The notes under the pieces are model-generated. The model worked only from the letters and a program-made list of their open reading frames with translations, ran no database searches and was not told where the DNA came from. From contig JBDRIN010000076.1 in NCBI GenBank assembly GCA_043815805.1, positions 1-42,979 on the forward strand: a stretch of 42,979 nucleotides of DNA, in the 5' to 3' direction. The DNA comes from an archaeon. Its GTDB lineage: Archaea > Nanobdellota > Nanobdellia > Woesearchaeales > JBDRIN01. Numbering within the stretch: the first letter of the stretch is position 1; the number at the start of each line of letters is the position of its first letter. Position numbers and translations under genes: made by a program. Below, piece by piece: positions 16,880-42,979 of the stretch.

Positions 16880-19800
16880 TTATGGTAAGAATGGATACTC
16901 GACTTCAGGGAGAGAAATATAATTAGAACCATAAGAAAACCCTCCAGGCACTTCTATCTCGTTGTTGTTCCCATCAATGGCCGTTACCCCAACATAATAA
17001 GACTCGCTAGTCGATTTCGGAGGCATCTGCATTATATAGAACATCATGTCTTCGTCTTCAAGATGATAGCATTTCTTGATTTCAGCGCTGGTTGAAATTC
17101 CTAGTGTAGTGAAGGTGCATGTACTGCCTGAGCAAGCCACCACCCCTCTTAAGTTTATGCGGAGGATGCTTGTATCACAATCACCTGCGATGAGCTCGTT
17201 ATAGGTATCCCCAATAGGGAACATATTAGTACCATCATAGACCCTGTAAGCAAACAGGTCTATTGCAGGTGAAGGCTCCCATTTCACAGCAATCAGGTTG
17301 CCCGGAGGATCTATTAATGTGCCTTCTAGGTCTTTTATCACCGGCGGCTCAGTTATATCCTTCATCTCAAGGGCGAACCGTATCTTGATTTGTTCTGGCT
17401 TAAAGCCTTTCTCTGGATTAGGCACAGAACTTGGGGTCTCTAGACAAAATCTATATCTATACTTATTCGGCGCACATTCTGGAGTTCCATCAGGAGCCCC
17501 TATCATGAACAAGCTCTTTTTTTCTGGTTTGTAAAGATATAATATATCAGCAGGAACATCCGGCGGCAGAATAAGCGGCCTTAGTATCTGGGCTTTGATG
17601 AATTTTCCATCCTCGTCGAATTCTACCTCGTAGAACAAGTCATTGTACTCCTCTGCATCAACGCTTGGATTGTTGGCATAAAAGGTTGTCTTGAAAGGAA
17701 GATAATAAGCGAGCTCATTATCATCAGGAACTTCCAGGAAGAACTTGTCTTCTATGAACTTTATCTTGAAGGTCTCTCCTGTGTCACCTGTAAAATTCAT
17801 CTTGCAATAACATGCGCTCTGGTTGTTCATCAGGCAATCATAATACTCCTCGACAAAATCATAATACAAATAATTATCCTCGCAAGCTCTAGAGATGACA
17901 AATCCAGCATCCTTGTTTTCCTGCGTATCATTGAACTCTTTCATCTTGTCCTCTACGCAACCGACAACACCATCTCCAGCGCATTCCTCAGCAGTCTCTT
18001 TGGCAAATTCGACGAGCTTCCTGTATACTCCTAAATCATGCTCTGCTACTGCGCTGAAATGCGGCTCCACTGTGTAGCCGCCCCAGACGCTCTGGACTTG
18101 TGCACAAGGAGGTGTGTTCTTGTATTTATCATACTGCGACACTTCTTTCCTGACAAAAGTGATATACCCTTCTGCTCCAGGAGGATCATACTTCGGCAAA
18201 ATCTTCTCCACAGTGTCAAGACCCGCCCCAACATAGTAAGGGCCAGCAATCATATCAAACCAAGCCATTATACCCTTGTCCCAGTCATTGAAGCCGCAGA
18301 AACAAGTAACTTTCCCAGGAAAGGTATAGGGATTACAGTCGACAAAATCACATTCATAAGTGCTATCAGTGCATTGTGTGTTCAGTTTCTTGGAGTGCTC
18401 TCCCGATGCAAAATCATCAAATCCTGGCTTGTCGAACTGGCAATTGCTCGGAATCATCATATTCCCTATGCTGTGTGTCCTTGTGGCCACACCGGCAGTC
18501 CCATACCCTGATTCTTTCCTGAAAAATGCAAGCGCAAAGGCATTGTCTATTCCCATACTGGCACTATACCCATAGAAAATATGCCCAAAATTCGTTGCAG
18601 GAGAGTTGGCATCTCCAAGTACCCTGTTGACCTCATCTTCCGAGAGGGAAGGCTCATCACCATTCAGCAGCACAGACATCTGGCAAGAGCCAGAACCTCC
18701 AGTATCTGCACCCAAAGAAAGCATAAGAGAAGTGTCCACGTGCGTACATTCCTCTGCCAGGTCTGGATCGTGCCTTGAAGGGATCATCGCATAGTTGTAT
18801 TTGTCTTTGCAGCTGAAAGCAGTGTCTGTGAAGATGAACTTCGAGAGCTGTTCTTCTGAATAGAAGCAGAATGGACTGTTTGCTTTGTCTCCTCCAAGAT
18901 TATCTGAAGCATAGACCTTAAAATCAAGGTGAGGACCTCCAGATTTTCCTGTGTTGCCGGATCTTGCTATGACATCTCCTTTGTTGACAACATCTCCTTC
19001 GCTCAGGCGAGCTACACTGTCCAAGTGGCTGTATCGTGTATAAAGATTCTCTCCGTGTTTCAATATTATATAATTCCCGTAATTCCCGCATTTTCCCCTG
19101 CATGCCGTAGGATCAGAACAGGGATCTCTTGGATCTGAGAGAGAACACTGGCATGTGCCTGTCCATTCCTCGCAGATCTTGAAGACACTTCCTCCTGTGA
19201 CTGCATAGACCTCGCTGCCTTTGGCCACTGCCAAGTCGATGCCGTCGTGGAAGTTCTCTTTTCCGTTCTCTGACTTTCCGTCCAGGTCTCTGTAGCCAAA
19301 GCATGATTCAGTATTGATTCTGTCGCTCTGAAGAGCTATGGGAAATACAAATGTCCCTTCCACATCTGTAAAGCCCTTCATCACGCTCTGGTGCATTATC
19401 TCAAAGTTCACTTTCTGCTTTGCCTTGGCGATCAACTTCAGACTTGCGTTCTGCTGTTTGAAAGTGTAGTCATAATTGTTCCACCCGATATCCAGGATGT
19501 GCTGGTCAAGCCTTGAGTTCATCTCATCATCGAGGTAGCCGGTTATGTTGCTTTTGAAGTCGGGATAGCATTCTTCTGTGTCGTTGTTCCACAAATAATA
19601 GACATGTTCTCCGCATTTCGGAACCGCAGGGGTGTTTACATCCTGCTTGGCATATATTCCTCCTGAACTGGCCATGTCCAGCAGTGAAGTATAATAGCTG
19701 TACTCACCTGCCTGGTCAATATAAAAAAGAGAGTTTTCTGCCCGTTGATATGTCCTTATGAGAGCTGACTGTTTTTCACCCAGGGGTTCATGGAGCAGCT

Positions 19801-19921
19801 CTGATTTGATCCTATAATTATAATTCATCTGGATATAACCATATATCAAGACGATTATTACGATTATGACCAGACCTACTATGAACACTTGCCCTTTCCG
19901 ATTCATTGTTTTTCTCATCAT
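16880..19921 (-). CDS. Class-III-signal protein carrying M23 metallopeptidase and lysozyme-like (GH73/SLT-type) murein hydrolase modules plus a beta-rich/FN3-like C-terminus (1013 aa)
   Basis: The start is taken at the ATGA overlap with the upstream stop, giving MMRKTMNRKGQVFIVGLVIIVIIVLIYGY. M23 module: NFHDGIDLAV, YTRYSHLDS, NTGKSGGPHLDFKVY (nt 18905-19348). Lysozyme-like module: NAFALAFFRKESGYGTAG...HSIGNMM...GIMAWFDMIAGPYYVGAGLDTVEKILPKYDP (nt 18131-18643). Confidence 0.8.
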   Translation of the reverse strand: MMRKTMNRKGQVFIVGLVIIVIIVLIYGYIQMNYNYRIKSELLHEPLGEKQSALIRTYQRAENSLFYIDQAGEYSYYTSLLDMASSGGIYAKQDVNTPAVPKCGEHVYYLWNNDTEECYPDFKSNITGYLDDEMNSRLDQHILDIGWNNYDYTFKQQNASLKLIAKAKQKVNFEIMHQSVMKGFTDVEGTFVFPIALQSDRINTESCFGYRDLDGKSENGKENFHDGIDLAVAKGSEVYAVTGGSVFKICEEWTGTCQCSLSDPRDPCSDPTACRGKCGNYGNYIILKHGENLYTRYSHLDSVARLSEGDVVNKGDVIARSGNTGKSGGPHLDFKVYASDNLGGDKANSPFCFYSEEQLSKFIFTDTAFSCKDKYNYAMIPSRHDPDLAEECTHVDTSLMLSLGADTGGSGSCQMSVLLNGDEPSLSEDEVNRVLGDANSPATNFGHIFYGYSASMGIDNAFALAFFRKESGYGTAGVATRTHSIGNMMIPSNCQFDKPGFDDFASGEHSKKLNTQCTDSTYECDFVDCNPYTFPGKVTCFCGFNDWDKGIMAWFDMIAGPYYVGAGLDTVEKILPKYDPPGAEGYITFVRKEVSQYDKYKNTPPCAQVQSVWGGYTVEPHFSAVAEHDLGVYRKLVEFAKETAEECAGDGVVGCVEDKMKEFNDTQENKDAGFVISRACEDNYLYYDFVEEYYDCLMNNQSACYCKMNFTGDTGETFKIKFIEDKFFLEVPDDNELAYYLPFKTTFYANNPSVDAEEYNDLFYEVEFDEDGKFIKAQILRPLILPPDVPADILYLYKPEKKSLFMIGAPDGTPECAPNKYRYRFCLETPSSVPNPEKGFKPEQIKIRFALEMKDITEPPVIKDLEGTLIDPPGNLIAVKWEPSPAIDLFAYRVYDGTNMFPIGDTYNELIAGDCDTSILRINLRGVVACSGSTCTFTTLGISTSAEIKKCYHLEDEDMMFYIMQMPPKSTSESYYVGVTAIDGNNNEIEVPGGFSYGSNYISLPEVEYPFLP

Positions 19922-20517
19922 CTCGTTGACCAAAATGCGACTGCTGCTATCTGCAGGCTCCACTTGACTGCTGTGCCAAAGGTGATGACCTCTGTCACCA
20001 TGCATACTTCTATGGCTTTGTCTCTCTCTATCCCCGGGATTATGACACATTTTTCCTGTGTCTCATCCAATAGTGGATCCCATTTCTTACCTATCTGAAA
20101 GTCTCCACCTTTCACATAGACTTTGTAGCACTCATCGCAGACCCTTGTTCGCAAGACAACTTCTGCCTCTGCCCAGGCAGCATCTTTCAGGTCTTGCCGG
20201 TTATAGGTGCCCTGGCCTGATTCATAAAGCGCAATTATATCTGCCACTATAAGTTCCTTCCCACCGAGCTCTACAGGAGAGCGCAGATAGTTCAGGAACA
20301 TCATGTCATTCCTTGTGTCGTCAAATTCCCCTTCAATGATGGCTTTCAGGGCCTTGCCGTAAAAGCTGAATATGACTGCGAAGACTATGAAGACCAGGAC
20401 TAAGACCAAGATGGCTATGCCTATGACCATCGCCCTTTGCCCTTTCTTGTTCAGTTTCAAAGAAACTGAATGCTCAAAAGACTTGTCTTTTGTTGTGTTC
20501 ATCTTTTCCATCTTCAT
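19918..20517 (-). CDS. Class-III-signal (pilin-like) protein, 199 aa
   Basis: N-terminus ...SLKLNKKGQRAMVIGIAILVLVLVFIVFAVIF. There are 4-nt ATGA overlaps with both neighbours. Confidence 0.65.
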   Translation of the reverse strand: MKMEKMNTTKDKSFEHSVSLKLNKKGQRAMVIGIAILVLVLVFIVFAVIFSFYGKALKAIIEGEFDDTRNDMMFLNYLRSPVELGGKELIVADIIALYESGQGTYNRQDLKDAAWAEAEVVLRTRVCDECYKVYVKGGDFQIGKKWDPLLDETQEKCVIIPGIERDKAIEVCMVTEVITFGTAVKWSLQIAAVAFWSTR

Positions 20518-21041
20518 CCGCTCTCTGGTTGTATTATATCTATGTGAAGAACCGCCTGCTTGAATTCTCCTTTGTCTTCGTAAGTCACAGGAAGCTTGTA
20601 GTCCATACGGTCTGTGCTGCCAAGGCCCAGGAATCTCCAGTTGGATAGGGGCAGCCAGCGGTCGTACCAGACTTTGTTGAAATATATCGGGGATTTCACC
20701 GCATCGCCGTTTGTATCTAACAGGGATATCTTGGCGCTGATATATTGATCATAAGAATAATCCATGGAGCTGTGCATATTGGTTGTCGTGAACTTATCAA
20801 GGTCTATTATGCCTGGATATGCTCTTCCTGTTTCCCTATCCACATAAGTCAATGCGTTGGGGGAATAGATTATGCGTGAATATAGGACCTCTCTTTTCAG
20901 TTCTAAGACTCTCATATCATTGACTATCAGCATCCGGAAGAGCATTATTATGACAAATACGACTATGGCAAGGATTATAAACCTCATTATCCAAAGCAGC
21001 ATATACTTTGCTGAAAATGCTTTTTTGTTGAGTCTAGCCAT
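20514..21041 (-). CDS. Class-III-signal-like protein, 175 aa
   Basis: MARLNKKAFSAKYMLLWIMRFIILAIVVFVIIMLF. It overlaps the upstream gene by 8 nt. Confidence 0.6.
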   Translation of the reverse strand: MARLNKKAFSAKYMLLWIMRFIILAIVVFVIIMLFRMLIVNDMRVLELKREVLYSRIIYSPNALTYVDRETGRAYPGIIDLDKFTTTNMHSSMDYSYDQYISAKISLLDTNGDAVKSPIYFNKVWYDRWLPLSNWRFLGLGSTDRMDYKLPVTYEDKGEFKQAVLHIDIIQPESG

Positions 21042-21984
21042 AGTACACCTTTATGCCCTCAAAAATGGCGAGGGCAACCTCATTCATCGGAAGTCCTCCT
21101 GCCTCTGGTCCGAGCTCTAGGATAACCGCGGTCTTTTGGGAGAGGAGTTTCTTGAGATCCTCGTCCGCCAATTCCAAGCTTGTTTTCCCAAATCCTTGTT
21201 TATCTTTGAAATGGTCAAGTTCCAGAATATTTAAGAGAAACAAGCATGCTAGTTTCTGTGATTTCAAGTTTAGCGCTGAGAAGTACGTGTTGACGTTCTC
21301 GTCGGAAGAGAAGTCCAGGATAACCACAAGGTCTGCGTCGCGCTCCTTCACCTTGTCTATGTTGTCTTCCCAATCATCTACTTCGTCTGCTCCATATACT
21401 TGGTTCTTGAAGATTAGCTTTATGGCTTGCTCTAGCTGCGACAGAGCAGGATCTTCTGTCCTAAAGAATATCTTCTGCTCTTTCAAGACACCTCCAGTTA
21501 TAGAAGTAGGGCACACCATAAGTATATTTAATGGCAAAAGACCGCTTTGCTCATCTATCCATATCCTGGCGTTATATTGCTGGTCATCGAAGACTTTCGC
21601 CTTCATAAAGTTAAAGCTTATTGTGTTGAACTCTGATTTCTCTACTTTGGTCTTGCTGTCCACTGCAAAATAGAAGGCTGCAGGAGTCAGCTTATCCTTG
21701 GATAGGTCCGGTCGGTATTCATAGACTTTGACGCGGTCCTCTTCAATATGTATCTCCAATGGCTTCACGCTGTTTAGGACATTATAATTGAAGTTCACTT
21801 CTCCAGGAGCCGCATGGACAGTGTCCATTATAAGAGCGATATCCCTAGCATAATAGTTTTTCCAATAGAGCGTGCCGTCTGCTATGTGGTTGACATAGGA
21901 GAACAAGGAGACAATGATCAAAACAAGAATGATCACCTCCATTATGACAAACCACAAATCTTGTACAAACCCCTTTTTATTCAT
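21034..21984 (-). CDS. Class-III-signal protein with a possibly degenerate MurNAc-L-Ala amidase (Amidase_3)-like C-terminal domain, 316 aa
   Basis: MNKKGFVQDLWFVIMEVIILVLIIVSLF. The C-terminal layout is ILMVCPT...ERDADLVVILDFSSDENVNTYFSA..SQKLACLFLLNI...TAVILELGPEAGG..NEVALAIFEGIKVYY. This mirrors the Amidase_3 pattern (ivIDpGH...aDlfiSiHaN...evyy..s..LA..i...PavLvElGf...iA.ai..gi..y) but without the His ligands. Confidence 0.6.
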   Translation of the reverse strand: MNKKGFVQDLWFVIMEVIILVLIIVSLFSYVNHIADGTLYWKNYYARDIALIMDTVHAAPGEVNFNYNVLNSVKPLEIHIEEDRVKVYEYRPDLSKDKLTPAAFYFAVDSKTKVEKSEFNTISFNFMKAKVFDDQQYNARIWIDEQSGLLPLNILMVCPTSITGGVLKEQKIFFRTEDPALSQLEQAIKLIFKNQVYGADEVDDWEDNIDKVKERDADLVVILDFSSDENVNTYFSALNLKSQKLACLFLLNILELDHFKDKQGFGKTSLELADEDLKKLLSQKTAVILELGPEAGGLPMNEVALAIFEGIKVYYG

Positions 21985-22024: not shown

Positions 22025-23281
22025 TTAACTATCCTCGTCGGGTGCTTTGCAGTAGTCATAATCTCGGAACTCTATAAGTTCACATCCTCCTTCGAACCCG
22101 CAGGGATTCATGCCGCAGATATTCTTTTCCTGGCCTTCGCAGGTGCTTCCAAGTGTTGGAAGGGAATTGTCAGATTTCACTAGAAGCGTGTCGCAATAAT
22201 CCTTGCAGCTGCCGTCATTCAGCTCTAAGAGCCAGCAATCCACGTCCGGCGTATAGTGCATTCCTTCCATGCAGATGCCATAATCTTTAAGCTTGTCTCC
22301 GCACATGCAGGGGAAATCTATAGGGCCTTCTACGCATTCTATGACACATACAGCTTCGCAGTTGGTGTCTCTGTCGACGTCAGTGCATATGACTTTCTTG
22401 ACTTCTTGCGCTTTGTAGTCTGGGGGAAGATGATCTTTAGCAGTGTCGCATTCTCTTCCAAGATCGCTCAGATAATCCTTCTCTTTGCATTCTTCTTCAG
22501 AAAGCTCTGGACAGCCGAACTCAAAATACTTATATCTCTGCCTTGACTTATCATTGTATCTTGTCATATAAATATATATCTTATTGGAACGGTTGTATTT
22601 CTCTATGTAGATATCCCCGATTGGGAGCCAGCTTCCGATGTGCACGTTGGCTTTCAGAGAGTAAAGCTGCAGGTATTCGTAATTGGTCTTGGTCATCTCT
22701 TTTTTGTCTTCAAGCAGCTCCAGATTTTCATAGACCCTGTCCTGTTTTATGTTCGGACGTTCCTTGCCGCCATACTCAGACCATCCTTCTGGTGTCTTGT
22801 AGAAGCTTCCTACAAAGACTATGTCTCTTTCAAACACTTTGCAGGTCACAAGGTGTGCATCTCCATCTGCTCCGTTGCCTTCTTCTTCAAGATTGCCATC
22901 GTACAGGCAAAGGCATGCTTTATCTCCGTCTGACCGGATGCATTGGGATGGGGGGAAAAGAGATCCAGAACTATCTACTCTGCTATGGACTATGCTTGGT
23001 CCAGTAGGCCACTCCTTGTCAAAACCAACAAGGGTGTATCCTGGAGGCAAGTAATAGGTTATGCCAGAGAAAGCCAGTTTGTCAGGATTATCTAATAATG
23101 TATCTATGGTCAAGCCGAGCATCTCAAAATTCTTCAATGTTGCTTTTTCTGAATCGTCGACGCTAAAAAGCCTGCATCCTATTGTTATCAAGAGTATGAT
23201 GGCAATGGCAGCTATGATGATCTCCAGGGTTATCTTTGGAATCATCATCTCCTGAGCCTTCCTGCTCTTTAAAGAAACCAT
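22025..23281 (-). CDS. Class-III-signal protein with a Cys-rich C-terminal half, 418 aa
   Basis: MVSLKSRKAQEMMIPKITLEIIIAAIAIILLITIG. The C-terminal ~160 aa are dense in Cys (CPELSEEECKEKD...CEAVCVIECVEGPIDFPCMCGD...). Confidence 0.65.
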   Translation of the reverse strand: MVSLKSRKAQEMMIPKITLEIIIAAIAIILLITIGCRLFSVDDSEKATLKNFEMLGLTIDTLLDNPDKLAFSGITYYLPPGYTLVGFDKEWPTGPSIVHSRVDSSGSLFPPSQCIRSDGDKACLCLYDGNLEEEGNGADGDAHLVTCKVFERDIVFVGSFYKTPEGWSEYGGKERPNIKQDRVYENLELLEDKKEMTKTNYEYLQLYSLKANVHIGSWLPIGDIYIEKYNRSNKIYIYMTRYNDKSRQRYKYFEFGCPELSEEECKEKDYLSDLGRECDTAKDHLPPDYKAQEVKKVICTDVDRDTNCEAVCVIECVEGPIDFPCMCGDKLKDYGICMEGMHYTPDVDCWLLELNDGSCKDYCDTLLVKSDNSLPTLGSTCEGQEKNICGMNPCGFEGGCELIEFRDYDYCKAPDEDS

Positions 23282-23282: not shown

Positions 23283-23894
23283 CTATGTTACCTCTATCTT
23301 GGCCTCTATAGTCCTAGCAACGTTCCCTTCTGTATCAAAGACCTTGAGATATATCTCGTAGTCTCCCTTTGTGACCTGGGTTCCTAGCCTTGTCAGCTCT
23401 AGAGGGTCTGCAGTGCAGTCTGCAGGGCCAGCCACACCCCAACTGCCTGAAATCTGACATTCTAAATATTCGTCAGCATTTTCTATCCATGCGTATAAGA
23501 TACAGTCTACGCCTTCTTCGACTTTCAAAGTCTTTCCATGGCTGATATCCACACCTTTCTCTCCATCGTCGTAGACCTTGTAGAGCCTGAACCGGACAAT
23601 GTCTGTCTTGGAAGACTCCGTGCTCTTGCTGTTATAGCAGCAATATTCTTTTCCAGGAGGACAATCCTTGTCCATAGGACTTGGTGTGCGTACATCTCCG
23701 AACTTGTCGCATTCTTCATTAGAAGTACAATATGTTAGGTCTGTGCCACCACATTTCTTGGCGCGATCAAGGAAAAGCCCTCCTTTGAAAAAGTCTGGGT
23801 AAAATATGCCAGTAACAACCAAGACAACAATCACCGTAACAAGTAATCCTAGAAGAGCTGCTCCTCCCTCGTTTCCTTTTTTAGATTTCATCAT
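23283..23894 (-). CDS. Class-III-signal pilin-like protein with a six-Cys module, 203 aa
   Basis: MMKSKKGNEGGAALLGLLVTVIVVLVVTGIF, then CGGTDLTYCTSNEECDKFGDVRTPSPMDKDCPPGKEYCC. Confidence 0.7.
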   Translation of the reverse strand: MMKSKKGNEGGAALLGLLVTVIVVLVVTGIFYPDFFKGGLFLDRAKKCGGTDLTYCTSNEECDKFGDVRTPSPMDKDCPPGKEYCCYNSKSTESSKTDIVRFRLYKVYDDGEKGVDISHGKTLKVEEGVDCILYAWIENADEYLECQISGSWGVAGPADCTADPLELTRLGTQVTKGDYEIYLKVFDTEGNVARTIEAKIEVT

Positions 23895-25175: not shown

Positions 25176-25433
25176 CTATGTGCCCAGGGAGATTATCTTG
25201 CAGCATTTTTCCGGATGACAGGACGTTTGTGCTTCTGGATTATTTACCGGTTCACATTGTGTGTTTGTGTTTGTACAATAACCTCCTTCAGAGATGCATT
25301 TGGTTCCATCACCATACTGGTTTGTTGATCGGACTATCATAATCACAACTACAATCACAACCAAGAGCAGAATCACTATTGTGATTACAGTTGATAAGGC
25401 CATTTCAACGCCTTTCTTGTTTATCATGATCAC
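25176..25433 (-). CDS. Small pilin-like protein (85 aa): class-III signal, helix and six-Cys head
   Basis: MIMINKKGVEMALSTVITIVILLLVVIVVVIMIV, then CISEGGYCTNTNTQCEPVNNPEAQTSCHPEKCC. There is an ATGA overlap with the upstream paralog. Confidence 0.75.
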   Translation of the reverse strand: MIMINKKGVEMALSTVITIVILLLVVIVVVIMIVRSTNQYGDGTKCISEGGYCTNTNTQCEPVNNPEAQTSCHPEKCCKIISLGT

Positions 25434-25696: not shown

Positions 25697-25705
25697 TGTT
25701 TTTCA

Positions 25706-25814: not shown

Positions 25815-25833
25815 TGGAAACTTCAAAGATCAT

Positions 25834-34601: not shown

Positions 34602-37600
34602 TCAACTGATTGTGATGTGCGGCTGGCCAGGGGCTAGCCAGTCATGGAGTATCGAGATGGTGGCGCCTATCTCGTTGCCTGCATAATCTTGGGCGACCAG
34701 TGTGACATTGCTGAAGACTTCTTGGCCTGGCTGTGCATCAAAGGTTATGTTCATGCTGAAGGTGCCATCGCCTATGCAGTCCTCTACGGTCGGACCTCCA
34801 CATTCAAGTATCTCTCCTTTCCTAATATTATTCACATAAGCAATTATTATCTCTGTATCTGCTTCTGACTCTCCCACAAATCTAACATTCAGCTTGTTGG
34901 TTATGCATTGGCCAGTTAGGTTCTCTCCGACGCATTGAGGATATATATCTGTTATAGAGAAATATGGTGGCCTGTTATCCACTAGTATGTTGTATTGCTC
35001 TTCTTCATGGTTGCCTGCATAATCACTGACCCTGATGGTTATGTCTTTCTCTTCCTCATGGTCTGCAGGGACCCCCCAATCAAAGGTCTCTGGTATCGTG
35101 AAAGTGAATTCTGTGCCTTGGGCAGTGGTGTCCATAGTCAATTCATCTCCTGAAATGTTCATCACCACTACTATCTCTTTCTCATTGGTGACTGTAAGGT
35201 CTATCGGCAGGGCAACTCCTGGTCTTATCCTGTCTGGCATGTCTAGGGTGAAGAGCGGCGCATGCGTATCTATTTCTATGTTGAAGACTTTGTAGCCTGG
35301 GAAAGTCTCATGCTCGTCTATGAGGCCTGCTGCTTCTGCCTTGAGCCTATAGGGTTCTTCTTCTAGTGTCTCTGTGAATGAGCAGTTGAGCGCTGATGAT
35401 TGGAAGGGTTCTGTCAAGTCGTCCTGTATTTCCTGGTCAAGCTGGTCAAAGGTTATGTCGTTGCAGTTGATTGTGTTGTTTTCGTCAAGAAGGGTTATGT
35501 TGGTCCATGCGAGTTCGCTTATGGCATATACCAGCGCGAATCCGGGATCTAAGCTGTTTATGTAGTAGACTCCCATTGGAGAGGGCTGTATGAATCCGTT
35601 CCTCCATCTGAAGTCTGGACTTTCCAAAGCACCTTCTCTCACTTCGAACTGCCACTCTGCTGACTTGTTGTTGCCAGCAAAGTCTCTTGCAAAGACTGTC
35701 ACGTTATAGATCGCATTGTCCAGGTCCTGGTTTGGGTTGACAAAGAACCTGTAGGTCTTCTTGGGATAGGTATCTTCGACAGAGTAATTGACAAAGAGAG
35801 AGTAAGTCACGTTCTCATCTCCCACAGCCACTTCTACTCTTTCTGCATCCAGTCCTTCGTCAAGTATAGTGAAGGTTATGTTGATAGTAGAGGTGGTTAC
35901 TGTCTCATCGATCGGGTTCATACTTCTTATTATGGGAGCTTCTGAATCATAGAAGACCTTGTAGGTCGGAGTGTAAGCATGGTATTGCATATAGTTTCTG
36001 TAGCCTGCCGAGATGTTGGTCAGGCCTTCTGGCAGGTCAAGAAGCATGCCGAACCATGTATAAGGGACTTCTTTCCTGTAGCTCTTCGCTGTCGTGCCAA
36101 CAGGGATCTCTTCTTCAAGTGCTGGGCTTATGGTCAAATGAAGTATGCCTCCGACTCTCTCTGAATTCATGATCTTGTAGTATTTCTTGTAGTTGCCGTA
36201 AGATTCCCTCTCTTTGCCTTCGAAATGCACATAATAGCCAGCTGGCCAGTTTGAAGGCAGAGCGATAGTCGGCAATTTAACCAGGGTTGCATTAGCAAGC
36301 GCTGTCTCATAGACTGTCTGGAGAGCTTCATGATCGATTTCTGCATTGAACACAAGTTGGTCGTATTCGTGCACAATTAGGTTGTTATAATAGAACCATA
36401 TGAGTTCTCTTGAGTTGCTTGTGTGGCCCGATACAAAGAGGTTTCCGTCGCTGGTGTAAAATACTTCTTGTTCATCATTTGGGAAAAGTGGATAATCATA
36501 ATCAGGATACTCTAGGAAGTCTGGCTCAAAGACAGGTTCTGGAGGAGTCACGGTATCTATTATTATGTCTATGCTTCCTCTGCCTTGGTTTCCTGCTTCA
36601 TCATAACCTATTGCCTCTAAAGAGGTCTCTAGATATTCTCCTCCAAAGTTTTCCAGGTCTATCTTGAGTATGGCTGTCCAGCTTGTCGGACTCTCTTGTG
36701 TGACATTGAAATCATATTGCCTGTTGACAAAGTGAAGATCAAGGTCTGTTGAGGGTTCTGTGGCCTCTATGCTTATCGAGTAGACTCCGAAACCTAGCAC
36801 TGTGACTGAAGGCCCACCTCCAAACGGAGTCACATCAAGCGTCATGTTTGGTGGCGTAGCATCTATGGACAAGGTGACTGTCTGCACTGTTTCCCTGTTT
36901 CCGACAGCGTCTTCAGAAAAGAAACAGATTTTGTATTCTCCGGATTCATCAAAGACTCTTGTCAGGAGCGGTGGATTCTCCACTTCAACAAATGTATCTA
37001 GGTTCTGGGATTCGCAGTTGTCTTGTACGCTGAAATAGAGCTTCTGGCATCCTGAGCTCCAGTCTCGTCCATAATCTATGAGCGGCCAGTCTGTACAATT
37101 AAAACGTACTCTGGCAAAGCGGTATCTTCCTCCAGACTCGAACTCTCCGCCCATGTCCCATCCGTAATAGTCTGAATAAGGAGGTGTGCAGTCCGTTGCA
37201 AACCTTATCTGGTCTGCTTCGTTGCCTTCCACATATTCCCCGCTGTCTGCAAAAGTGCATGCTGTGTTGAATCCCCAGACTTCTGATTCTATAAGCGATA
37301 ATGTTGAAGAATGTGACATGCCCCCGGTCACAGTAAAAGGAGTTGTCGGAGCCCCGTTTCCATAGCTGCAGGTCGCATCTGCATAGGTGTCTATGCTTAT
37401 CTCTACGTTGCCGCAGGCCACTGTGCCTGTCGGCTGCGGATCGTCTATGCGGAAGTCTCCTGCGATTGGTATCTGGATTACTTCATCAAATATGTTGCCG
37501 TATATGTCTTCGCAATATACAGCGTAGTTGTAATAACCGTCTTCTAAAGCGACATAGGTCCTTGTCCAGCTTGTTCCTCTTAGTCTGTCTATGTCGTTCC

Positions 37601-40409
37601 AGACCTGGACAGCTCCTCCGCTATCTTCAGACAGGCTGGCAGAGCATACAGCTTCTCTGCTTGCGCTTATAGTGATGGTCAGGTCACTGATCCATATCTG
37701 GGTTCCGTCTATCTCCATCTGGTTGAACACGTTGTAAGGCACTGTGACAACAAATGGCTCTGCATCAACTGTGAAAGTGTAATCCTTTATGGGCTCTAGG
37801 TTTCTTGCCGGGTCAAGCGAATAATAGAACAGTCTGTAAGTCTTGACCGTGTTCATCTCAGAATCTATCATTGGATGTATCTTGCTATATGTTGCCTTGT
37901 TTGCTAACGTGCTGTTAGGATAGCATGTACTTTCTGAGAAGCAGAAGTATGTCTCCAGAGAGTTTACATTGTAGATACCATCAAGGACAGAGTATTCTAT
38001 CTCGGGAAACTTGCTGAATGTCTTTCCTGGCGGATTGACTATTTCTGTCTGTGGGCTCTCAAAATCAAGCTCGCACGTTGCGTCTGGGTAAGTCTCACAG
38101 TCTCTTAAGTCTGCTAGTAGATTTGGTGAGTTATCATCTGCATCCCTATAGCATTTGTCGCCTATGGGCTTGTCTTCATCCCATTTGCACTTGGTGTAGC
38201 CAAAGAAGGAATAGCTTTCGTTCTGAATCTCGTGTGAACCACCTGACCTTATGCCTCCGGCAGCATATTCCACATCTGCGTCAAAGTCCTGGCCTAAGCC
38301 ATTATAGTTTATGCAGTCTTCTTCTGTGTCAAACTGCTTACAGAAAGTCTGGCTCTGTGCTATGCATCCTTTAGGATCATATCCCTCGTCGTCAAAATAA
38401 CAATTGCCAAAGTATTGGCATATCTCTTCGCTGCACCATTCCCACTCGCATTCACTGCAGTCCTCATATTCTGGATTGTCTGAATAGCAGACTCCTTTGC
38501 CTAACTCTTGGTTGATGTAGGTCCAATCGCAGTCTTTGTTCAGGCTGCAGGGGTCTTCTTCACAGACTCCTTTTGAATTATAAGCATAACATGATGTGAT
38601 ATTCTCGCATTTGTGGTACTTGTCGACTGTTGTCTGGGTGTAATCATATACACAAGTAGGGACTGTTTCGCAAAGATGCAGATCATCAGCATATTCTAAC
38701 ACGACATTACCTAAGATGGCGCCGTACATGGCAAAGACTCCGTTGCATTTATCGCATGGTGCCTGTACATTGCACTGCACTTCTTGCATTGGCTCTCCTG
38801 AGCCGTCGAATTTCCTTAGGCATATCTCTTTTGGATCATGATTCTTACAGTCTTTGTCGTCCCCGAATTCAGGAGGCTTTATCATGACAAGCTGGTTCAG
38901 GGCGTTGCAGGCATAACCTGAGTTGTTTATGCATACTTCTTCGAACTCCATATTTATGCATTCATCATCACCCATATCCTGGCACACGATGTTTGATTCC
39001 ATCTCGCCTGTTGGGAATTCTCCGACAACATAATAGCAGTATCTTGTGCTTGTTTTCAAAAGAGGATTATCATCCCTGTAGACCAGAGCTTCTGTTCCTT
39101 GGATAAAAGAAAAATCACCGCCAGTTGAGTCGCAGTCTGCTGCTCCGTCATCTTCGCATCTGTAGACTCGGTAACCCTCATCGCATTCAACTTCTGGAAT
39201 CAACACCCATTCAAGGTCAAAGGCTTTCATATCATCCACCGGCGTGACATTGACAAGAGCTACTGATGCTGGATCGCAGGTGTCTGGGCACTTGCATTCG
39301 TCTGTGCAGTCTGCTCCGTTCTCACAAGTATTTCCTGGGAAGCATTCTGAAAATCCTGATTCTTGGCAGGTGTCTGGAAAAAAGAAGCAATTGCACGCCC
39401 CGTTCTGGCCAGGAGCTATGCACATCCCGTTCGTACAGTCATCATCACTTTCGCATTCTTCCCAAGGTTCATCTATCACACCATCGCCGCAGCTGGTCTC
39501 TACCACCTCTTCTGGTTCGCAGTCCTGGTCATCGTTTGGTGCTCCGTTCTGCCGGACACACCAGTCTGGACAGACTCCCATGACATCATAATGATACTCG
39601 TTTCCATTTGGCCCTGTGTTCTCTGCAGCAGTCAAGCAGGAGCAGTCAGGGTCGAATATATCCTCTTGATCTGGCGTTGCATCAGGGCAATGCGGTGGGC
39701 AGATTCCATTCGATAAGGGATCTGTCGGTATGCATATGTCTATGAGTAAGCAATCAGGGTCGCCTTCGCATTTTTGGCAGTATTCCAAAGCTTGTGGATA
39801 ATTACCAAGATTATAATCCAGCCATCTTCCTGCAGCGTTGCACCAGGAATCTGTCGTGAAGTTGCATTGTCCTGGCTCGCATTCGCAATCAGGTATTGAA
39901 GAGTCGAATATGTTACTGCAGTCTCCGTTGGCTTCGCAATTGTCGATTGTGCAATCATCTCCGTCGTCGCACTGTGAGTCAGTCGTGCATGCATCAACAC
40001 AAGCAGAGGTGTCTAATTGACAGTCTACATCGCAGGCTATGGTTCCACCTGTGAATTCTGGAAACGCTCCACAACTGGCGCCTCCAAGGTTGGTACCATC
40101 GCATTCCTCTGGCTCTTCTATGATTCCGTTGCCGCAGACTGGCGTAGGAGGAGTATCTGCACAGAAATAATTGTTGCAGTAGGTGTATTCATCACCATAA
40201 TTTCTAACGATAGCGTCCCATTCGTCAAGGTCTGCAAAGCCTATGAATGTTCCATCCACACATTCTGCGCGTGTTGTGAAATCGCCTCCAAGTGCTGCAT
40301 CAAAGCAGCAGCATCCGTCATCCAGCTCTGCAAGTGCAGAACCGGATAGAGCTAACAGTATAGCTATAGAAATCAGTATAATCAAGGCTTGTTTTCCTCT
40401 AACCATCAT
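34602..40409 (-). CDS. Giant secreted protein (1935 aa): Cys-rich N-terminal ~770 aa, then Cys-poor beta-rich (Ig-like) repeats
   Basis: MMVRGKQALIILISIAILLALSGSALAE signal. CGNGIIEEPEECDGTNLGGASC and SCGDGVIDEPWEECESDDDC resemble CGNG-type cysteine-rich repeats. The Cys-rich part is roughly nt 38060-40320. Confidence 0.75.
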   Translation of the reverse strand: MMVRGKQALIILISIAILLALSGSALAELDDGCCCFDAALGGDFTTRAECVDGTFIGFADLDEWDAIVRNYGDEYTYCNNYFCADTPPTPVCGNGIIEEPEECDGTNLGGASCGAFPEFTGGTIACDVDCQLDTSACVDACTTDSQCDDGDDCTIDNCEANGDCSNIFDSSIPDCECEPGQCNFTTDSWCNAAGRWLDYNLGNYPQALEYCQKCEGDPDCLLIDICIPTDPLSNGICPPHCPDATPDQEDIFDPDCSCLTAAENTGPNGNEYHYDVMGVCPDWCVRQNGAPNDDQDCEPEEVVETSCGDGVIDEPWEECESDDDCTNGMCIAPGQNGACNCFFFPDTCQESGFSECFPGNTCENGADCTDECKCPDTCDPASVALVNVTPVDDMKAFDLEWVLIPEVECDEGYRVYRCEDDGAADCDSTGGDFSFIQGTEALVYRDDNPLLKTSTRYCYYVVGEFPTGEMESNIVCQDMGDDECINMEFEEVCINNSGYACNALNQLVMIKPPEFGDDKDCKNHDPKEICLRKFDGSGEPMQEVQCNVQAPCDKCNGVFAMYGAILGNVVLEYADDLHLCETVPTCVYDYTQTTVDKYHKCENITSCYAYNSKGVCEEDPCSLNKDCDWTYINQELGKGVCYSDNPEYEDCSECEWEWCSEEICQYFGNCYFDDEGYDPKGCIAQSQTFCKQFDTEEDCINYNGLGQDFDADVEYAAGGIRSGGSHEIQNESYSFFGYTKCKWDEDKPIGDKCYRDADDNSPNLLADLRDCETYPDATCELDFESPQTEIVNPPGKTFSKFPEIEYSVLDGIYNVNSLETYFCFSESTCYPNSTLANKATYSKIHPMIDSEMNTVKTYRLFYYSLDPARNLEPIKDYTFTVDAEPFVVTVPYNVFNQMEIDGTQIWISDLTITISASREAVCSASLSEDSGGAVQVWNDIDRLRGTSWTRTYVALEDGYYNYAVYCEDIYGNIFDEVIQIPIAGDFRIDDPQPTGTVACGNVEISIDTYADATCSYGNGAPTTPFTVTGGMSHSSTLSLIESEVWGFNTACTFADSGEYVEGNEADQIRFATDCTPPYSDYYGWDMGGEFESGGRYRFARVRFNCTDWPLIDYGRDWSSGCQKLYFSVQDNCESQNLDTFVEVENPPLLTRVFDESGEYKICFFSEDAVGNRETVQTVTLSIDATPPNMTLDVTPFGGGPSVTVLGFGVYSISIEATEPSTDLDLHFVNRQYDFNVTQESPTSWTAILKIDLENFGGEYLETSLEAIGYDEAGNQGRGSIDIIIDTVTPPEPVFEPDFLEYPDYDYPLFPNDEQEVFYTSDGNLFVSGHTSNSRELIWFYYNNLIVHEYDQLVFNAEIDHEALQTVYETALANATLVKLPTIALPSNWPAGYYVHFEGKERESYGNYKKYYKIMNSERVGGILHLTISPALEEEIPVGTTAKSYRKEVPYTWFGMLLDLPEGLTNISAGYRNYMQYHAYTPTYKVFYDSEAPIIRSMNPIDETVTTSTINITFTILDEGLDAERVEVAVGDENVTYSLFVNYSVEDTYPKKTYRFFVNPNQDLDNAIYNVTVFARDFAGNNKSAEWQFEVREGALESPDFRWRNGFIQPSPMGVYYINSLDPGFALVYAISELAWTNITLLDENNTINCNDITFDQLDQEIQDDLTEPFQSSALNCSFTETLEEEPYRLKAEAAGLIDEHETFPGYKVFNIEIDTHAPLFTLDMPDRIRPGVALPIDLTVTNEKEIVVVMNISGDELTMDTTAQGTEFTFTIPETFDWGVPADHEEEKDITIRVSDYAGNHEEEQYNILVDNRPPYFSITDIYPQCVGENLTGQCITNKLNVRFVGESEADTEIIIAYVNNIRKGEILECGGPTVEDCIGDGTFSMNITFDAQPGQEVFSNVTLVAQDYAGNEIGATISILHDWLAPGQPHITIS

Positions 40410-40491
40410 CCACCATCTTTTTTCCTTAATATACCTATTTTTAAGACTTCATATTTAAATATGTTTTGTTTTTTATCGAGGAAAGAAGTGA

Positions 40492-42979
40492 TTAGGGATG
40501 CCATCCAGTCGATGTACAAGTGAAGCCGCCTATTGGCGGAGCGTTGAAGGCAACATATATATCTGTGCCGGCATTGTTGATCATATCCCCACAATCATAG
40601 AATCTACCACCATAACAGAGCAAATATTGTGTGTGATCTCCTTCTGCCATCAAATCTCCATTGTAGCAGCAATAGTTTCCTGCGCCTGGATCCTGGTAGT
40701 CCTCGTTGCTGTTGCCATCGTCGCAGCATTGGTTAAAGCCGAACCATGCGCCTTCGCCTGCTTCGCAGGTGCATATGAACTCAATCTGCTCTTCGTTATC
40801 TAAGTAGTATCCATTAACGCACGCCCCGATAGCAGATCCTACTTCTCCGTCGCAGCCATTATCTCCTGGTTGGCAGCAGAAGCCGGGGCCAGTAGCATTT
40901 TCCACCCAGCAGTATCTCTCGTTGACCTGGCATTCTTCTTTTCCAGGTGTGTATGTGCAGTTGCATCCCCTTATACTCTCGTCTGGGTCGTCGAAGTCGC
41001 AGAAATCATTGCAGAAACCCGTTGTCCCTACGCATTGGCCTGCTTGTTGGGTGTCGCATTCATTTGATATTGTCTCTCCGCATTCATCTGTGCAATAGCA
41101 CCCTTCGATTTTTGGCTGCGAACATGTTCCGTCATTGCATAACCCCTGGCATTTGAATTTTGCAGGTTCTTTGAATTCGTTCAGATCTGAGCATTCTGGA
41201 TCATGCTGGCATATGCCTATCGCCCCTGGCCGGCTGTAGTTCAGCTCGAATGTCATGCCTGTTGTGTAATTGACACATTGCACTTGGTCGAAGAAAGGCC
41301 CTTCTTGTGGAGGCCCTTGGCATCTCTCTTCTTCACCAGATAATTTATCATTACATTCTTCTATGACTGCTTGTATTTCCTCTGCAGCTCCGCTGCAGAC
41401 ATTTCCTCTTGTGTTAGAACAATATCTTGTGTAATTGCTCTTGTAGATGTCGTTGTCGAAAGGATAATTTGGTGCAAGCCCAGGTTCATAATCCAAAGGG
41501 ATAGAGTTGGGGGGCATTGGTGTGTTCATGAAGTTTGACCTGTCAAAGTCAAAGTATCCCCCGTAAAGCAGGTCTGTGAAACAAGCTTTGTCGATATCAT
41601 AATAAGTATAATCCTCTCTGCAGCATGTGTGATTTGCTAAGTAAGGGTTTATATTTGGGTCATTGTAAGGATAAGATGCGCTGTAGTTCCTATGGGGAAC
41701 GCATTCTGTTACGTTCACTATTAGATAATCTGGGGGTCCCCAAGTTATAGTTTCCAGGTCGCTGGCAGCTGTCAAGGAGATGTTATGCATCCCTGTGAAC
41801 TTGAAGAAAAATTGGTTTGGGTTGCTTTCTATGGTCGCTGCTGGATACACCTCGAAGGGCATATACAAATTTTCTTTTCTGGTTATGTTGTGGAAACCAT
41901 CCAATAGGTCTGTCCAGTTGTAGAGCAGCATCCTTGATAGGTAGACTGTTGAACCGCTGGAATCAAGAGTATATGGATCTTCTATAGAAGATCTGTTGTT
42001 ATCTATATCTGAGAAGTTGTTCTTGCCTGTTGCGTTGGCGTGCGGCAGGTCATAAATCAGTATGGTTATGTTTTGCCAGTCTTCAAGCCCGAAGTCATCT
42101 TCAATCCATATTATGGTGTGGTGTATGCCTGTATCATTGAACTCTGGCATATAACCTGCTCTTCTTTCAGTATCTTGGAATTCTACAGATGTGCTCCAGG
42201 ACTTCGGGTTGTCTTCTTCCCTGTCAAAGCAGATGTCTCGGTTATCCCACAGCTCAGTCAGGTTGGAACAATCGACTGTGCCCGGTCCTGCGTCGCAGCA
42301 ATCAGGTTTGAAACGGTCCCAATAGTCTTCTCTCCATGCTTTGTAAGAATAGATTATGCGGTCTTCGTCAGGATCATAACCTCGAGGATCAAGTATCAAT
42401 GGAACGCCTTCACTTCCTATGATATCAAACCAGCTTGAGCGGGTTTCGTGGATATAATCCAACGCTGGCCTCCTGTTCTTTATGGCGAACTGATAGACAT
42501 ATGGCTTGTTCCTGACTAGGGATTCGTTGTCTATTATCTGGAATACATCATCGTATTTGCCGAAGGTGCAGAGCGTGGAGCATGGCTTCTCGACAAATCT
42601 GAACGTCATGTTTTCCAGGTAGGAGAATACTTGTGCACGTGTGGAGTAGAATTCTTCTGTCTTGTTGTAGAAGATGTTCTTGGCGTCGCGCTTTATTATG
42701 GTCTGGGCCAGTATGTACATCTCCTTGAGCCTTACAGGAGATCTTATCTGGAAATCTCTTCGGATAGTTATTGGTTGTCCTCCCTGGACGCTGACCAGGA
42801 ATGGGTAGCTCACGTTCACGTTAAATCCTTCTCTTCCGAAGATAACAGTGCTTTGAGGTTCGTTCAGGACTTCTATGTTAGTTCCTAGCTCTTCAAATAC
42901 TGAGAAGTTGACGCATTCCTGTATCTTCTTTGAAATGTAGTATTCCATCTGGTCTTGTGTTGAAACATTCTGGCCGATG
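40492..42979 (-). CDS. Large surface protein with a Cys-rich C-terminal third; the reading frame is open to the right window edge, so the N-terminus is probably outside
   Basis: The track ORF (818 aa) starts at M 42948, but the 31 nt upstream (IGQNVSTQDQ) have no stop. The C-terminus has CQGLCNDGTCSQPKIEGCYCTDECGETISNEC and QCCDDGNSNEDYQDPGAGNYCC. Confidence 0.65.
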   Translation of the reverse strand, partial: IGQNVSTQDQMEYYISKKIQECVNFSVFEELGTNIEVLNEPQSTVIFGREGFNVNVSYPFLVSVQGGQPITIRRDFQIRSPVRLKEMYILAQTIIKRDAKNIFYNKTEEFYSTRAQVFSYLENMTFRFVEKPCSTLCTFGKYDDVFQIIDNESLVRNKPYVYQFAIKNRRPALDYIHETRSSWFDIIGSEGVPLILDPRGYDPDEDRIIYSYKAWREDYWDRFKPDCCDAGPGTVDCSNLTELWDNRDICFDREEDNPKSWSTSVEFQDTERRAGYMPEFNDTGIHHTIIWIEDDFGLEDWQNITILIYDLPHANATGKNNFSDIDNNRSSIEDPYTLDSSGSTVYLSRMLLYNWTDLLDGFHNITRKENLYMPFEVYPAATIESNPNQFFFKFTGMHNISLTAASDLETITWGPPDYLIVNVTECVPHRNYSASYPYNDPNINPYLANHTCCREDYTYYDIDKACFTDLLYGGYFDFDRSNFMNTPMPPNSIPLDYEPGLAPNYPFDNDIYKSNYTRYCSNTRGNVCSGAAEEIQAVIEECNDKLSGEEERCQGPPQEGPFFDQVQCVNYTTGMTFELNYSRPGAIGICQHDPECSDLNEFKEPAKFKCQGLCNDGTCSQPKIEGCYCTDECGETISNECDTQQAGQCVGTTGFCNDFCDFDDPDESIRGCNCTYTPGKEECQVNERYCWVENATGPGFCCQPGDNGCDGEVGSAIGACVNGYYLDNEEQIEFICTCEAGEGAWFGFNQCCDDGNSNEDYQDPGAGNYCCYNGDLMAEGDHTQYLLCYGGRFYDCGDMINNAGTDIYVAFNAPPIGGFTCTSTGWHP

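Follow-up and report, generated by a model that had tools for sequence, protein, structure and literature searches.

The stretch of DNA analysed here (the window) comprises 42,979 nucleotides (nt) of contig JBDRIN010000076.1 (assembly GCA_043815805.1), apparently all of this contig, from an archaeon of the order Woesearchaeales. Between positions 42979 and 16880 it contains a cluster of 21 open reading frames (ORFs), 16 of which encode proteins with an N-terminus of the archaeal prepilin (class III signal) type, together with giant Cys-rich surface proteins and, as last gene, a predicted murein hydrolase. In our judgement the chances are even that this locus encodes a Woesearchaeal apparatus for adhesion and wall breaching, related to type IV filaments (TFF) and aimed at bacteria. 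The ORFs of the window were listed and translated; the genes of the cluster are named W_00 to W_20, and the loci of relatives L001 to L089. The nearest relatives of the window proteins belong to metagenome-assembled genomes labelled Candidatus Woesearchaeota, Nanoarchaeia or Nanoarchaeota.

The original prediction had assigned a basic leader ending in K/R-K/R-G/A and a hydrophobic helix to 16 of the 21 ORFs, and translation reproduces all 16 quoted N-termini (16/16) exactly. Each of the 16 proteins possesses a short basic leader with G, A or S at position -1, followed by an N-terminal hydrophobic helix of approximately 20 residues. Relatives were fetched by exact-protein look-ups (L001-L009) and by scanning genomes with aligned sequences of the 342 amino acid (aa) protein W_04, from which 80 loci were kept among at least 175 species-level genomes with a relative. 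ORFs were called and clustered in 86 loci, including partial views of 20-21 kb. Counts are given for the core families and are limited to proteins with an N-terminal hydrophobic helix; 58 proteins with such a helix, from the opposite strand or from outside the locus, serve as controls. The motif [KR][GAS] directly precedes the N-terminal helix in 494 of 522 core-family proteins versus 23 of 58 controls, and Q occupies position +1 in 315 of 522 versus 7 of 58, against a background Q frequency of 3.4%. The logo over the 86 loci reads K75 K78 [A41 G35 S24]/Q64 (here and below the slash separates positions -1 and +1), with a median leader of 7 residues. Among the motif proteins 90% have K or R at -3, while the 100% found at -2 follow from the definition of the motif, and 308 of 494 carry D or E within +1 to +7. 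Conserved acidic residues near the mature N-terminus are found at +3 in W_06 (E) and at +6 in W_05 (E), unlike the classical position +5.

Pilins usually combine a common N-terminus with diverse heads. In hhalign comparisons of the family head domains with the helix removed, no homology between families is detectable, and a high W_05-W_06 probability is traced to the N-terminal helix; K-K-[AGS]/Q, in contrast, is common to more than 10 families. What unites the families is therefore a signal and not a common origin of the complete proteins. An anchor that follows the positive-inside rule would need neither a small residue at -1 nor Gln at +1 nor a fixed tail of 5-10 residues. From sequence, a recognition or processing site at these N-termini, not an arbitrary membrane anchor, is supported. 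Class III processing of the cluster proteins appears likely to us, and we infer that the signal is cleaved by a peptidase of family A24.

Several results weigh against this assignment. Pfam PF04021 does not match any member (E <= 0.1), the NCBIfam models of archaeal pilin N-termini are equally silent (E <= 1), and a strict FlaFind-type pattern, written for this analysis, fits just one of the 16 window proteins and 63 of 494 overall, so that the class III prediction proposed as a check of the 16 N-termini turned out negative. The mature N-termini open with 3-7 polar or amphipathic residues, which accounts for the misfit to the strict pattern. PF04021 barely scores a canonical pilin (KRGQVALEFL) of the related locus L009 (E 0.19), and its silence on the cluster members therefore carries little weight. 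Profile hidden Markov models were built for two families (6-Cys and W_06) and for the N-termini as a pool; searched against sequences of the PDB, they retrieve generic transmembrane helices, apart from non-significant beta-defensin-fold matches, and no pilin. The prepilin architecture that had been claimed accordingly stands as far as the conserved K-K-[AGS]/Q, the Glu and the leader are concerned, while curated models and fold searches remain silent on it.

These silent predictors and generic matches would also be expected if the proteins were uncleaved type II signal anchors, with KK[GAS]Q as a topogenic or partner-binding element, in a membrane complex for biogenesis of the cell's own envelope, division or intercellular bridges. 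The near-universal presence of the locus in the order, among housekeeping genes, is as a core envelope function would have it. Such anchors, however, leave unexplained why G, A or S is present at -1 in 95% versus 40% of controls and Q at +1 in 60% versus 12%, why unrelated families have a median tail of 7 residues, and why an invariant E and G lie just past the motif. The PF04021 argument is weak for the reason given, and the sets of SLT, Amidase_2, glucosaminidase and YkuD domains in the terminal hydrolases lack an obvious substrate in an archaeal envelope. We rate the signal-anchor explanation as rather improbable.

Processing by a prepilin peptidase, the preferred explanation, has a counterpart in Methanococcus maripaludis, whose EppA substrates have leaders of 5-13 aa ending in G, Q at +1 and E at +5 (PMC3875500). 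Several of its EppA-processed subunits comprise no more than 54-63 aa after maturation, and the genes for ATPase and platform occupy a locus of their own (PMC3875500). In its sequence the cluster signal matches this EppA-type class III signal of the Methanococcus Epd pilins. Epd pili and the TFF 'system 1' (M. maripaludis EpdA-C, MMP1685, MMP1283) share with the Woesearchaeal cluster the short basic leader, the small residue at -1, Q at +1 and a nearby Glu, many pilin-like paralogues of widely differing size including tiny headless ones, large adhesin-like proteins in the pilin cluster, and a separate locus for ATPase and platform (PMC3875500; PMC4858521; bioRxiv 2026.04.22.720090). In contrast to the Epd pili, the Woesearchaeal cluster lacks detected sequence or profile homology to DUF361/PF04021, has A or S at -1 in approximately two thirds of the cases and Glu at +3 or +6 instead of +5, does not include a peptidase gene, possesses ectodomains that, read from their Cys content, are heavily disulfide-bonded, carries a murein hydrolase on a pilin-type N-terminus, and comprises 13-19 members per locus. 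We did not find an earlier description of a signal subclass in which K-K-[AGS]/Q is combined with a Glu at +3 or +6.

The terminal gene W_20 (16880-19921, minus strand) encodes a class III-type protein of 1013 aa (NRKG/QVFIVGLVII) with a Peptidase_M23 domain at approximately aa 225-340, a weak glucosaminidase-like stretch at approximately aa 450-560 and a Cys-rich C-terminal region. The M23 match (Pfam PF01551) reaches 78.6 bits versus a cut-off of 28.7 (E 4e-22, aa 226-340 of the 1015-aa translation of 16880-19927), but the glucosaminidase match is sub-threshold (E 0.062); of the murein-hydrolase domains claimed for the terminal operon, the first is therefore significant and the second is not. 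Of the zinc and catalytic motifs of M23 peptidases (H-x3-D and H-x-H), the first is present as FHDGID. A point to be set against wall breaching is the last motif, PHLDF, which has H-x-D in place of the classical H-x-H, and the enzyme activity is predicted only. H-x-D is kept in all Woesearchaeal homologues retrieved and in some distant matches. A Cys-rich insertion (EEWTGTCQCS...CRGKCGNYGNY) in the M23 domain, whose region lies at 17900-19250 in the window, is likewise kept in all Woesearchaeal homologues retrieved.

In the Woesearchaeal homologues P0009-P0014, which are 787-1343 aa long, M23 occurs together with SLT, YkuD, Amidase_2 or Glucosaminidase domains. Five of the six start with [KR][GA] and a helix, whereas in P0010 a hydrophobic segment forms the very start. 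Murein, which archaea do not make, is the substrate of SLT, MurNAc-L-Ala amidase and glucosaminidase domains; the substrate is therefore likely the bacterial wall, and on domain content the wall of a bacterial partner is the likely target of W_20-type hydrolases. For the Woesearchaeota, murein degradation via 'large lytic murein transglycosylases' has been proposed in passages of two studies (PMC9723730; PMC12352652). These enzymes (AR20, Castelle 2015, as cited in PMC9723730) probably belong to the same family as W_20 and P0009-P0014, and in the passages searched they are treated as isolated CAZy or peptidoglycan hydrolase matches, with no mention of a class III-type N-terminus or of a fixed terminal position in a pilin-like/adhesin locus of 25 kb. 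We found no earlier description of a pilin-type N-terminus on murein hydrolases.

The giant proteins are encoded at the opposite end of the cluster. W_01 (34602-40409, minus strand) is 1935 aa long with 96 Cys, a Sec-type signal peptide and Big_13 Ig-like domains (Pfam 3.3e-11); its sole hydrophobic segment is N-terminal, leaving it without a membrane anchor, and it is a candidate adhesin. W_02 (31324-34581, minus strand) is predicted as a type I membrane protein of 1085 aa with a Sec signal, whose Ig/fn3-like domains and Cys-rich repeats are joined by a transmembrane segment (748-773) to a cytoplasmic tail of approximately 310 aa that is rich in Lys; orthologues hold the same position in L001, L004, L006 and L009. 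Both complete giants thus possess Sec-type signal peptides, not class III signals. The ectodomain of W_02 contains three repeats of approximately 40 aa of the form C..G..DG.ETDIDCGG.C..C, and its cytoplasmic tail is of low complexity and extremely rich in Lys, Glu, Ser and Thr. W_00 (40492-42979, minus strand) is Cys-rich (5.4%), sequon-rich, longer than 828 aa and without Pfam match; its N-terminal part of approximately 230 residues is cut off by the window edge. The orthologue in L009 has 996 aa (34% identity over 716 aa) and a class III-like N-terminus, MSKKEANRNKFSNKKSQFTAFVILGIV, reading ...NKKSQFTAFVILGIV. The W_00 family is present in 22 loci, with the motif in 13 of 15 intact N-termini. 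From the start of the L009 orthologue, W_00 is probably the 17th class III-type member of the cluster. Scans of genomes and metagenomes with W_00 and with a giant fragment of L008 as queries both returned zero relatives.

Directly after the giants follow four class III-type genes, W_03 to W_06, which are always adjacent. W_03 (30837-31316, minus strand; 159 aa, MRSKKG/QMQHVFIYIL) takes the position next to the giants throughout the clustered loci; the motif is present in 56 of its 59 helix-bearing orthologues, and Q at +1 in 88%. W_04 (29793-30821, minus strand; 342 aa) contains the invariant segment QFNWIFILIVG and serves as marker of the locus. In the family of W_05 (29261-29791, minus strand; 176 aa, KA/QIQMGESIAVIVI; 78 orthologues) Q at +1 is found in 100% and E at +6 in 96%, and in that of W_06 (28724-29224, minus strand; 166 aa, RRKG/QMEMMGLAVIVV) Q at +1, E at +3 and G at +6 in 99% each. 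The W_06 family comprises 918 clusters at 50% identity and has six conserved Cys.

An AlphaFold model of W_06, based on a 138-sequence alignment, has a mean predicted local distance difference test score (pLDDT) of 91.8 and consists of four helices, among them 7-37 and its continuation 43-62, and an antiparallel sheet of four strands; as modelled, W_06 resembles a pilin-like 'lollipop' of helix and beta head. The model of W_04 (pLDDT 78.9) has a helix of 56 residues (6-61), a beta domain and C-terminal helices. Foldseek searches of both models against the PDB count against a pilin assignment, as they do not retrieve any pilin; the best matches (E 0.003 for W_04 and 0.06 for W_06) are unrelated folds with low TM-scores. 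The helix-plus-head architecture that a structure check was to look for is thus predicted for W_06, but without a pilin among its structural matches. Pfam, NCBIfam and PHROGs scans of the members find M23, Ig-like domains and a weak glucosaminidase only.

The smallest members of the cluster are of a size typical for filament subunits. W_10 (26476-26607, minus strand) is a 'headless' class III-type protein of 43 aa (SKKG/QLNIWMKLLIVV) and thus Flp/Epd-like in size, and ORFs of 50-55 aa occur at the matching position in L004, L008, L019, L026, L057 and L084. W_12 (25430-25696, minus strand; 88 aa) and its paralogue W_13 (25176-25427, minus strand; 83 aa, NKKG/VEMALS) carry a 6-Cys head. The W_12 family is found in 39 loci in 1-4 tandem copies, with the consensus KK[GA]/QG[LI]S[ILM]N[VT]IIIAA and a head spacing of C-x6-C...CC. 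W_12 possesses its own promoter-like (TATA-like) box and the best Shine-Dalgarno sequence of the cluster. On account of these two features and the tandem copies, the 6-Cys proteins are proposed as bulk subunit, with W_12 as a candidate for the abundant one.

The spacing of the 6-Cys head in these proteins of approximately 90 aa (25430-25696 and 25176-25427; tandems e.g. in L001, L006, L008, L046 and L084) is C-x6-C-x3-8-C-x10-20-C-x5-8-CC. The family profile gives non-significant matches to beta-defensin folds in the PDB (tick carboxypeptidase inhibitor, E 0.28; Defensin-BvL; beta-defensin 3; crotamine), and in Pfam Inhibitor_I68 at a non-significant E of 0.02; a defensin-like knot on a pilin-type stalk is possible. 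Furthermore, 'CC' is present in the final 25 residues of 59 of 63 small 6-Cys proteins, and in 21 loci (W_01 near 40310-40330 in the window and 20 others) the first giant has 'GCC' or 'GCCC' 1-6 residues past the site at which Sec signal cleavage is predicted. An intermolecular disulfide coupling of the first giant with the small 6-Cys subunits is conceivable.

Genes for an assembly ATPase, a platform protein and a prepilin peptidase are absent from the window, as had been stated and as family scans of the window agree, and equally absent inside the locus in all 86 loci, which counts against the filament reading. A search beyond the window was also negative: within 10 kb of the marker gene in the 86 loci there is neither a PilB-type Walker A signature nor a multi-transmembrane ORF named as platform by Pfam, three such ORFs that were scanned giving no match. 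The locus flanks that Pfam can name are housekeeping genes. In L022 a protein of 370 aa with 8 predicted transmembrane segments (7422-8534, minus strand) scores above the Pfam thresholds for Peptidase_A24 and Arc_PepC and contains the motifs SYTDIKYGRI and TAGDAKLF. This gene is close to a truncated copy of the locus, but outside it and on the opposite strand, and its location may be coincidental; a scan of genomes and metagenomes with it as query returned zero relatives. Approximately 2 kb upstream of its locus copy, L009 possesses two canonical archaeal pilins, MKLKRGQVALEFL... (KRGQVALEFL..., 154 and 163 aa; 1432-1896 and 1990-2481). The interval between these pilins and the locus contains genes for ribosomal proteins and for a small guanylate-cyclase-domain protein. 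DPANN archaea have been reported to possess TFF 'system 1' machinery (bioRxiv 10.64898/2026.04.22.720090), and an ATPase locus apart from the pilin loci is normal in M. maripaludis and Haloferax volcanii (PMC3875500).

The missing ATPase and platform genes in or near the locus and the very heterogeneous heads would also suit an assembly like the Sulfolobus bindosome, in which class III-processed proteins form a membrane-proximal envelope structure that holds hydrolase and adhesins without any extended filament. Class III-type N-termini on large and diverse proteins of up to 1013 aa, an enzyme included, speak for this view, and the bindosome itself provides a precedent (PMC3047682). Like the Woesearchaeal locus, the bindosome (Bas system, sugar-binding proteins) has class III-type N-termini on large non-structural proteins with small pilin-like helpers alongside; unlike it, the Woesearchaeal cargo would be a hydrolase and adhesin-like proteins instead of solute-binding proteins, and family scans of the window find no solute-binding, ABC transporter or BasE/F-type ATPase/platform genes in the locus. 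The members of 43, 83 and 88 aa, in contrast, have the size of Flp/Epd filament subunits and include tandem copies with their own promoter-like box, an invariant Glu as in W_05 and W_06 is a usual trait of subunits whose helices pack against each other in a fibre, and the bindosome requires a dedicated ATPase/platform pair of its own. A bindosome-like assembly is unlikely in our estimate, though the weightiest of the alternatives considered here, and, given processing, we hold an extended filament to be moderately probable.

In the mechanism that we propose, the chromosomal operon set would supply the extracellular parts of a TFF-type surface apparatus. Some 16-17 precursors with an EppA-type class III signal would be cleaved by an A24 prepilin peptidase encoded elsewhere, leaving the hydrophobic N-terminal helix, by which the products of two further genes outside the locus, a PilB/FlaI-type ATPase and a platform protein, would extract the proteins from the membrane and stack them into a filament or a short pseudopilus. 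The adjacent W_03 to W_06, two of them with an invariant Glu, may form a priming or tip complex, and the small 6-Cys proteins (83-88 aa), the headless W_10, or both may be the bulk subunit. The Sec-exported giant, Ig-like and Cys-rich proteins would act as adhesins that the filament carries or works with. W_20 would represent a 'modular pilin' whose murein hydrolase module most likely digests the wall of a partner bacterium gripped by the apparatus, which would allow attachment, access to nutrients or DNA, or killing. Filament assembly, the roles of the individual subunits and the bacterial target are what we infer. Concerning the composite surface filament or adhesion apparatus for partner contact that had been put forward, giants and murein hydrolase fit the contact function, whereas filament formation is hypothetical.

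In the proposed check for synteny in related genomes, gene order is the same in L001, L004, L006, L008, L009 and dozens of the loci L010-L089. The colinear order comprises a protein of approximately 1000 aa (W_00), one or two giants, W_03 (approximately 160 aa), W_04 (approximately 345 aa), W_05 and W_06 (approximately 168 aa each), then 1-4 6-Cys genes (approximately 90 aa), two genes of approximately 300 aa and an ORF of approximately 50 aa. Next come a Cys-rich set of variable composition, three further small genes, the hydrolase gene (800-1300 aa) and, usually, RPA. RPA follows the hydrolase gene directly in L006-L008, L084 and the window. Even in partial views (20-21 kb), the number of class III-type members per locus has a median of 13 and reaches 19. 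The marker W_04 is found in at least 175 species-level genomes, and the chromosomal position adjoining RPA-RadA-S2 is the same in several divergent genomes. On sequence evidence the locus is conserved through the whole order of Woesearchaeota at a fixed chromosomal position. In L038 and L039 the cluster ends after the W_06 orthologue and unrelated genes follow, so the locus can be split into at least two chromosomal parts. Many locus-bearing contigs (L012, L015, L016, L018, L019, L076, L085 and others) are deposited as 'uncultured Methanosarcinales archaeon' and single ones as Dehalococcoidales or Aminicenantes bacterium; these records are probably mislabelled or mis-binned.

This fixed position bears on a fourth reading, in which the cluster belongs to a mobile element, a virus or a conjugation-type system resembling type IV secretion systems (T4SS), with a PrgK/VirB1-like murein hydrolase for the mating channel. 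In T4SS loci of Gram-positive bacteria, numerous small proteins anchored by their N-termini are encoded together with a large hydrolase that has M23, SLT or CHAP domains, a pairing similar to the one found here, and the best PHROG matches of the M23 domain are phage endolysins and tape-measure proteins. However, Pfam and PHROGs scans of the window and flanks do not find any VirB4/VirD4-type ATPase, relaxase, integrase, capsid or terminase gene, nine other members lack a PHROG match, the RPA-RadA-S2 neighbourhood is fixed in divergent genomes, GC content is even, and the marker is present in at least 175 species-level genomes. From synteny, even composition and the hallmark genes that were not found, the mobile-element or virus reading is rejected as highly improbable.

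A contact apparatus directed at bacteria, the interpretation preferred here, can be compared with further known systems. Bacterial minor-pilin/PilY1 operons (fimU-pilVWXY1E) also have a fixed block of four small pilin-like genes beside a very large adhesin gene, and in the modular pilins PilB/PilC of Streptococcus sanguinis a function is carried on the C-terminal module of the pilin (PMC8179133). In contrast to both, homology is lacking, the Woesearchaeal signal is of the archaeal type, and the module is a cell-wall hydrolase, which we have not found described for any pilin. The Woesearchaeal giants differ from PilY1/DUF2341 as well, being Sec-exported and unrelated, with only Big_13-type Ig domains found by Pfam. 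The Thermoproteales TFF subsystems 4G/4I (Pyrobaculum/Thermoproteus) resemble the cluster in their many Cys-conserved minor pilin-like proteins and large Ig-rich adhesin-like proteins (PMC4858521), but those loci possess their own ATPase, platform and MinD-like genes, lack a murein hydrolase and belong to a different phylum. The mismatch with known systems asserted in the original prediction is partly overstated, in view of separate ATPase loci in M. maripaludis (PMC3875500) and of large adhesins beside many Cys-rich minor pilins in Thermoproteales loci (PMC4858521); for a pilin-type N-terminus on murein hydrolases, no description was found. As kinds of system, proteins with class III signals, sets of minor pilins and adhesins associated with pili are already known. 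The size of the set (median 13, up to 19), the disulfide load of the ectodomains and the order-wide fixed chromosomal position were not found described before.

Few uncultured DPANN archaea are as widespread as the Woesearchaeota. The locus joins pilin-type subunits, giant adhesin-like proteins and murein-specific hydrolases, and hence offers testable candidates for contact machinery; it points to bacteria, not archaea, as Woesearchaeal partners or prey, which would change the picture of DPANN ecology. For pilus biology, the locus would add one subclass to the known signals and one type to the modular pilins. The segment QFNWIFILIVG and the signal K-K-[AGS]/Q can be used for detection in metagenomes, for the design of antibodies or of imaging coupled to fluorescence in situ hybridization, and for the choice of hydrolase domains. 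A bolder proposal, and one we regard as doubtful, is a lineage-wide 'grapple-and-drill' organelle derived from TFF, with disulfide-knotted mini-pilins, a pilin-fused multi-enzyme murein hydrolase and giant adhesins, with which an archaeon would seize bacteria and breach their murein. If true, it would be the first defined molecular apparatus for parasitism or predation of an archaeon on a bacterium, and would include the first pilin with a cell-wall-lytic module.

The layout of the cluster largely agrees with its first description. ORF listing and translation place all 21 ORFs co-directionally on the minus strand from 42979 down to 16880, as had been claimed; plus-strand ORFs within these limits do not exceed 206 aa and are each nested in a longer minus-strand ORF. 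Class III-type proteins range from 43 to 1013 aa, the largest being encoded at 16880-19921, and most ectodomains contain 2-8% Cys, both in line with the size range and Cys-richness noted earlier. ATGA overlaps occur as well, for example between W_19 and W_20 at 19918-19921. Gaps range from -8 to 40 nt with the exception of 82 nt (40410-40491) and 137 nt (25697-25833); a third larger gap of 156 nt (28568-28723) had been listed, but its size is correct only with the ATG start of an ORF at 28472-28702. The hairpins described for the 137- and 156-nt gaps are borne out by RNA folding, which is better than in 200 of 200 shuffles (z -3.75 and -4.95), whereas folding of the 82-nt gap is unremarkable versus shuffles (z -1.0). 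Both hairpin-bearing gaps contain TATA-like boxes (TTTATATA / TTTATAAA). The region 28568-28723 (minus strand) has three perfect hairpins besides its TTTATAAA box, with a fold z of -4.95 and 0 of 200 shuffles as good, and is a probable sub-operon boundary. In 25697-25833 (minus strand) a CTTTATATA box, a hairpin (fold z -3.75) and a GGAGGTG ribosome-binding site precede the small 6-Cys genes. From hairpins and boxes in these two gaps, the gene train is probably divided into three sub-operons.

The remaining class III-type genes, all on the minus strand, are W_08, W_09 and W_14 to W_19. W_08 (27580-28470; 296 aa, TKRG/MAIETFG) is a paralogue of W_09 (26641-27552; 303 aa, TKKG/QMDELGAIV), which has an additional C-terminal hydrophobic segment; the W_08 family is found in 35 loci, mostly as tandem pair. 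W_14 (23913-25172; 419 aa, 18 Cys, NKRA/NEGIG) has orthologues in L004, W_15 (23283-23894) encodes 203 aa with 9 Cys (SKKG/NEGG), and the family of W_16 (22025-23281; 418 aa, 23 Cys, SRKA/QEMMIP) is present in 6 loci. W_17 (21034-21984; 316 aa, NKKG/FVQDLWFVIMEV) belongs to a family of 27 loci with the motif in 18 of 19 proteins with a helix, and W_18 (20514-21041; 175 aa, NKKA/FSAKYMLLWIM) to one of 21 loci with the motif in 19 of 20. W_19 (19918-20517; 199 aa, LNKKG/QRAMVIG) has a leader of 26 aa, and similar ORFs are located directly ahead of the hydrolase gene in other loci. W_11 (25834-26463, minus strand; 209 aa, 16 Cys; orthologue in L004) possesses the N-terminal hydrophobic helix without the KK[GAS] motif. 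A doubtful hydrophobic ORF of 31 aa (28472-28567, minus strand; MSVIRVLLAVV...) lacks both the motif and a conserved family.

Below 16880 the co-directional run continues into housekeeping genes (RPA, RadA and others), so that the lower boundary of the cluster is functional and not a strand switch. Housekeeping genes encoded in the window include RadA, an RPA-type single-stranded DNA-binding protein, ribosomal protein S2, a TRAM protein and FGAM synthase; GC content is even along the window. Between the YdjM and DUF2334 genes, 12590-13444 encodes a protein of 284 aa that contains 17 Cys and a single hydrophobic segment and is not matched by Pfam. In L001 a gene with an NTP_transf_2/Polbeta nucleotidyltransferase domain and a small unannotated ORF are located directly upstream of the locus. 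An ORF pair is present in the window at 9884-10562, with products of 133 aa (9884-10285) and 91 aa (10287-10562); judged by eye on the translations, the first looks like a PIN-domain VapC toxin and the second like an AbrB/SpoVT-type antitoxin.

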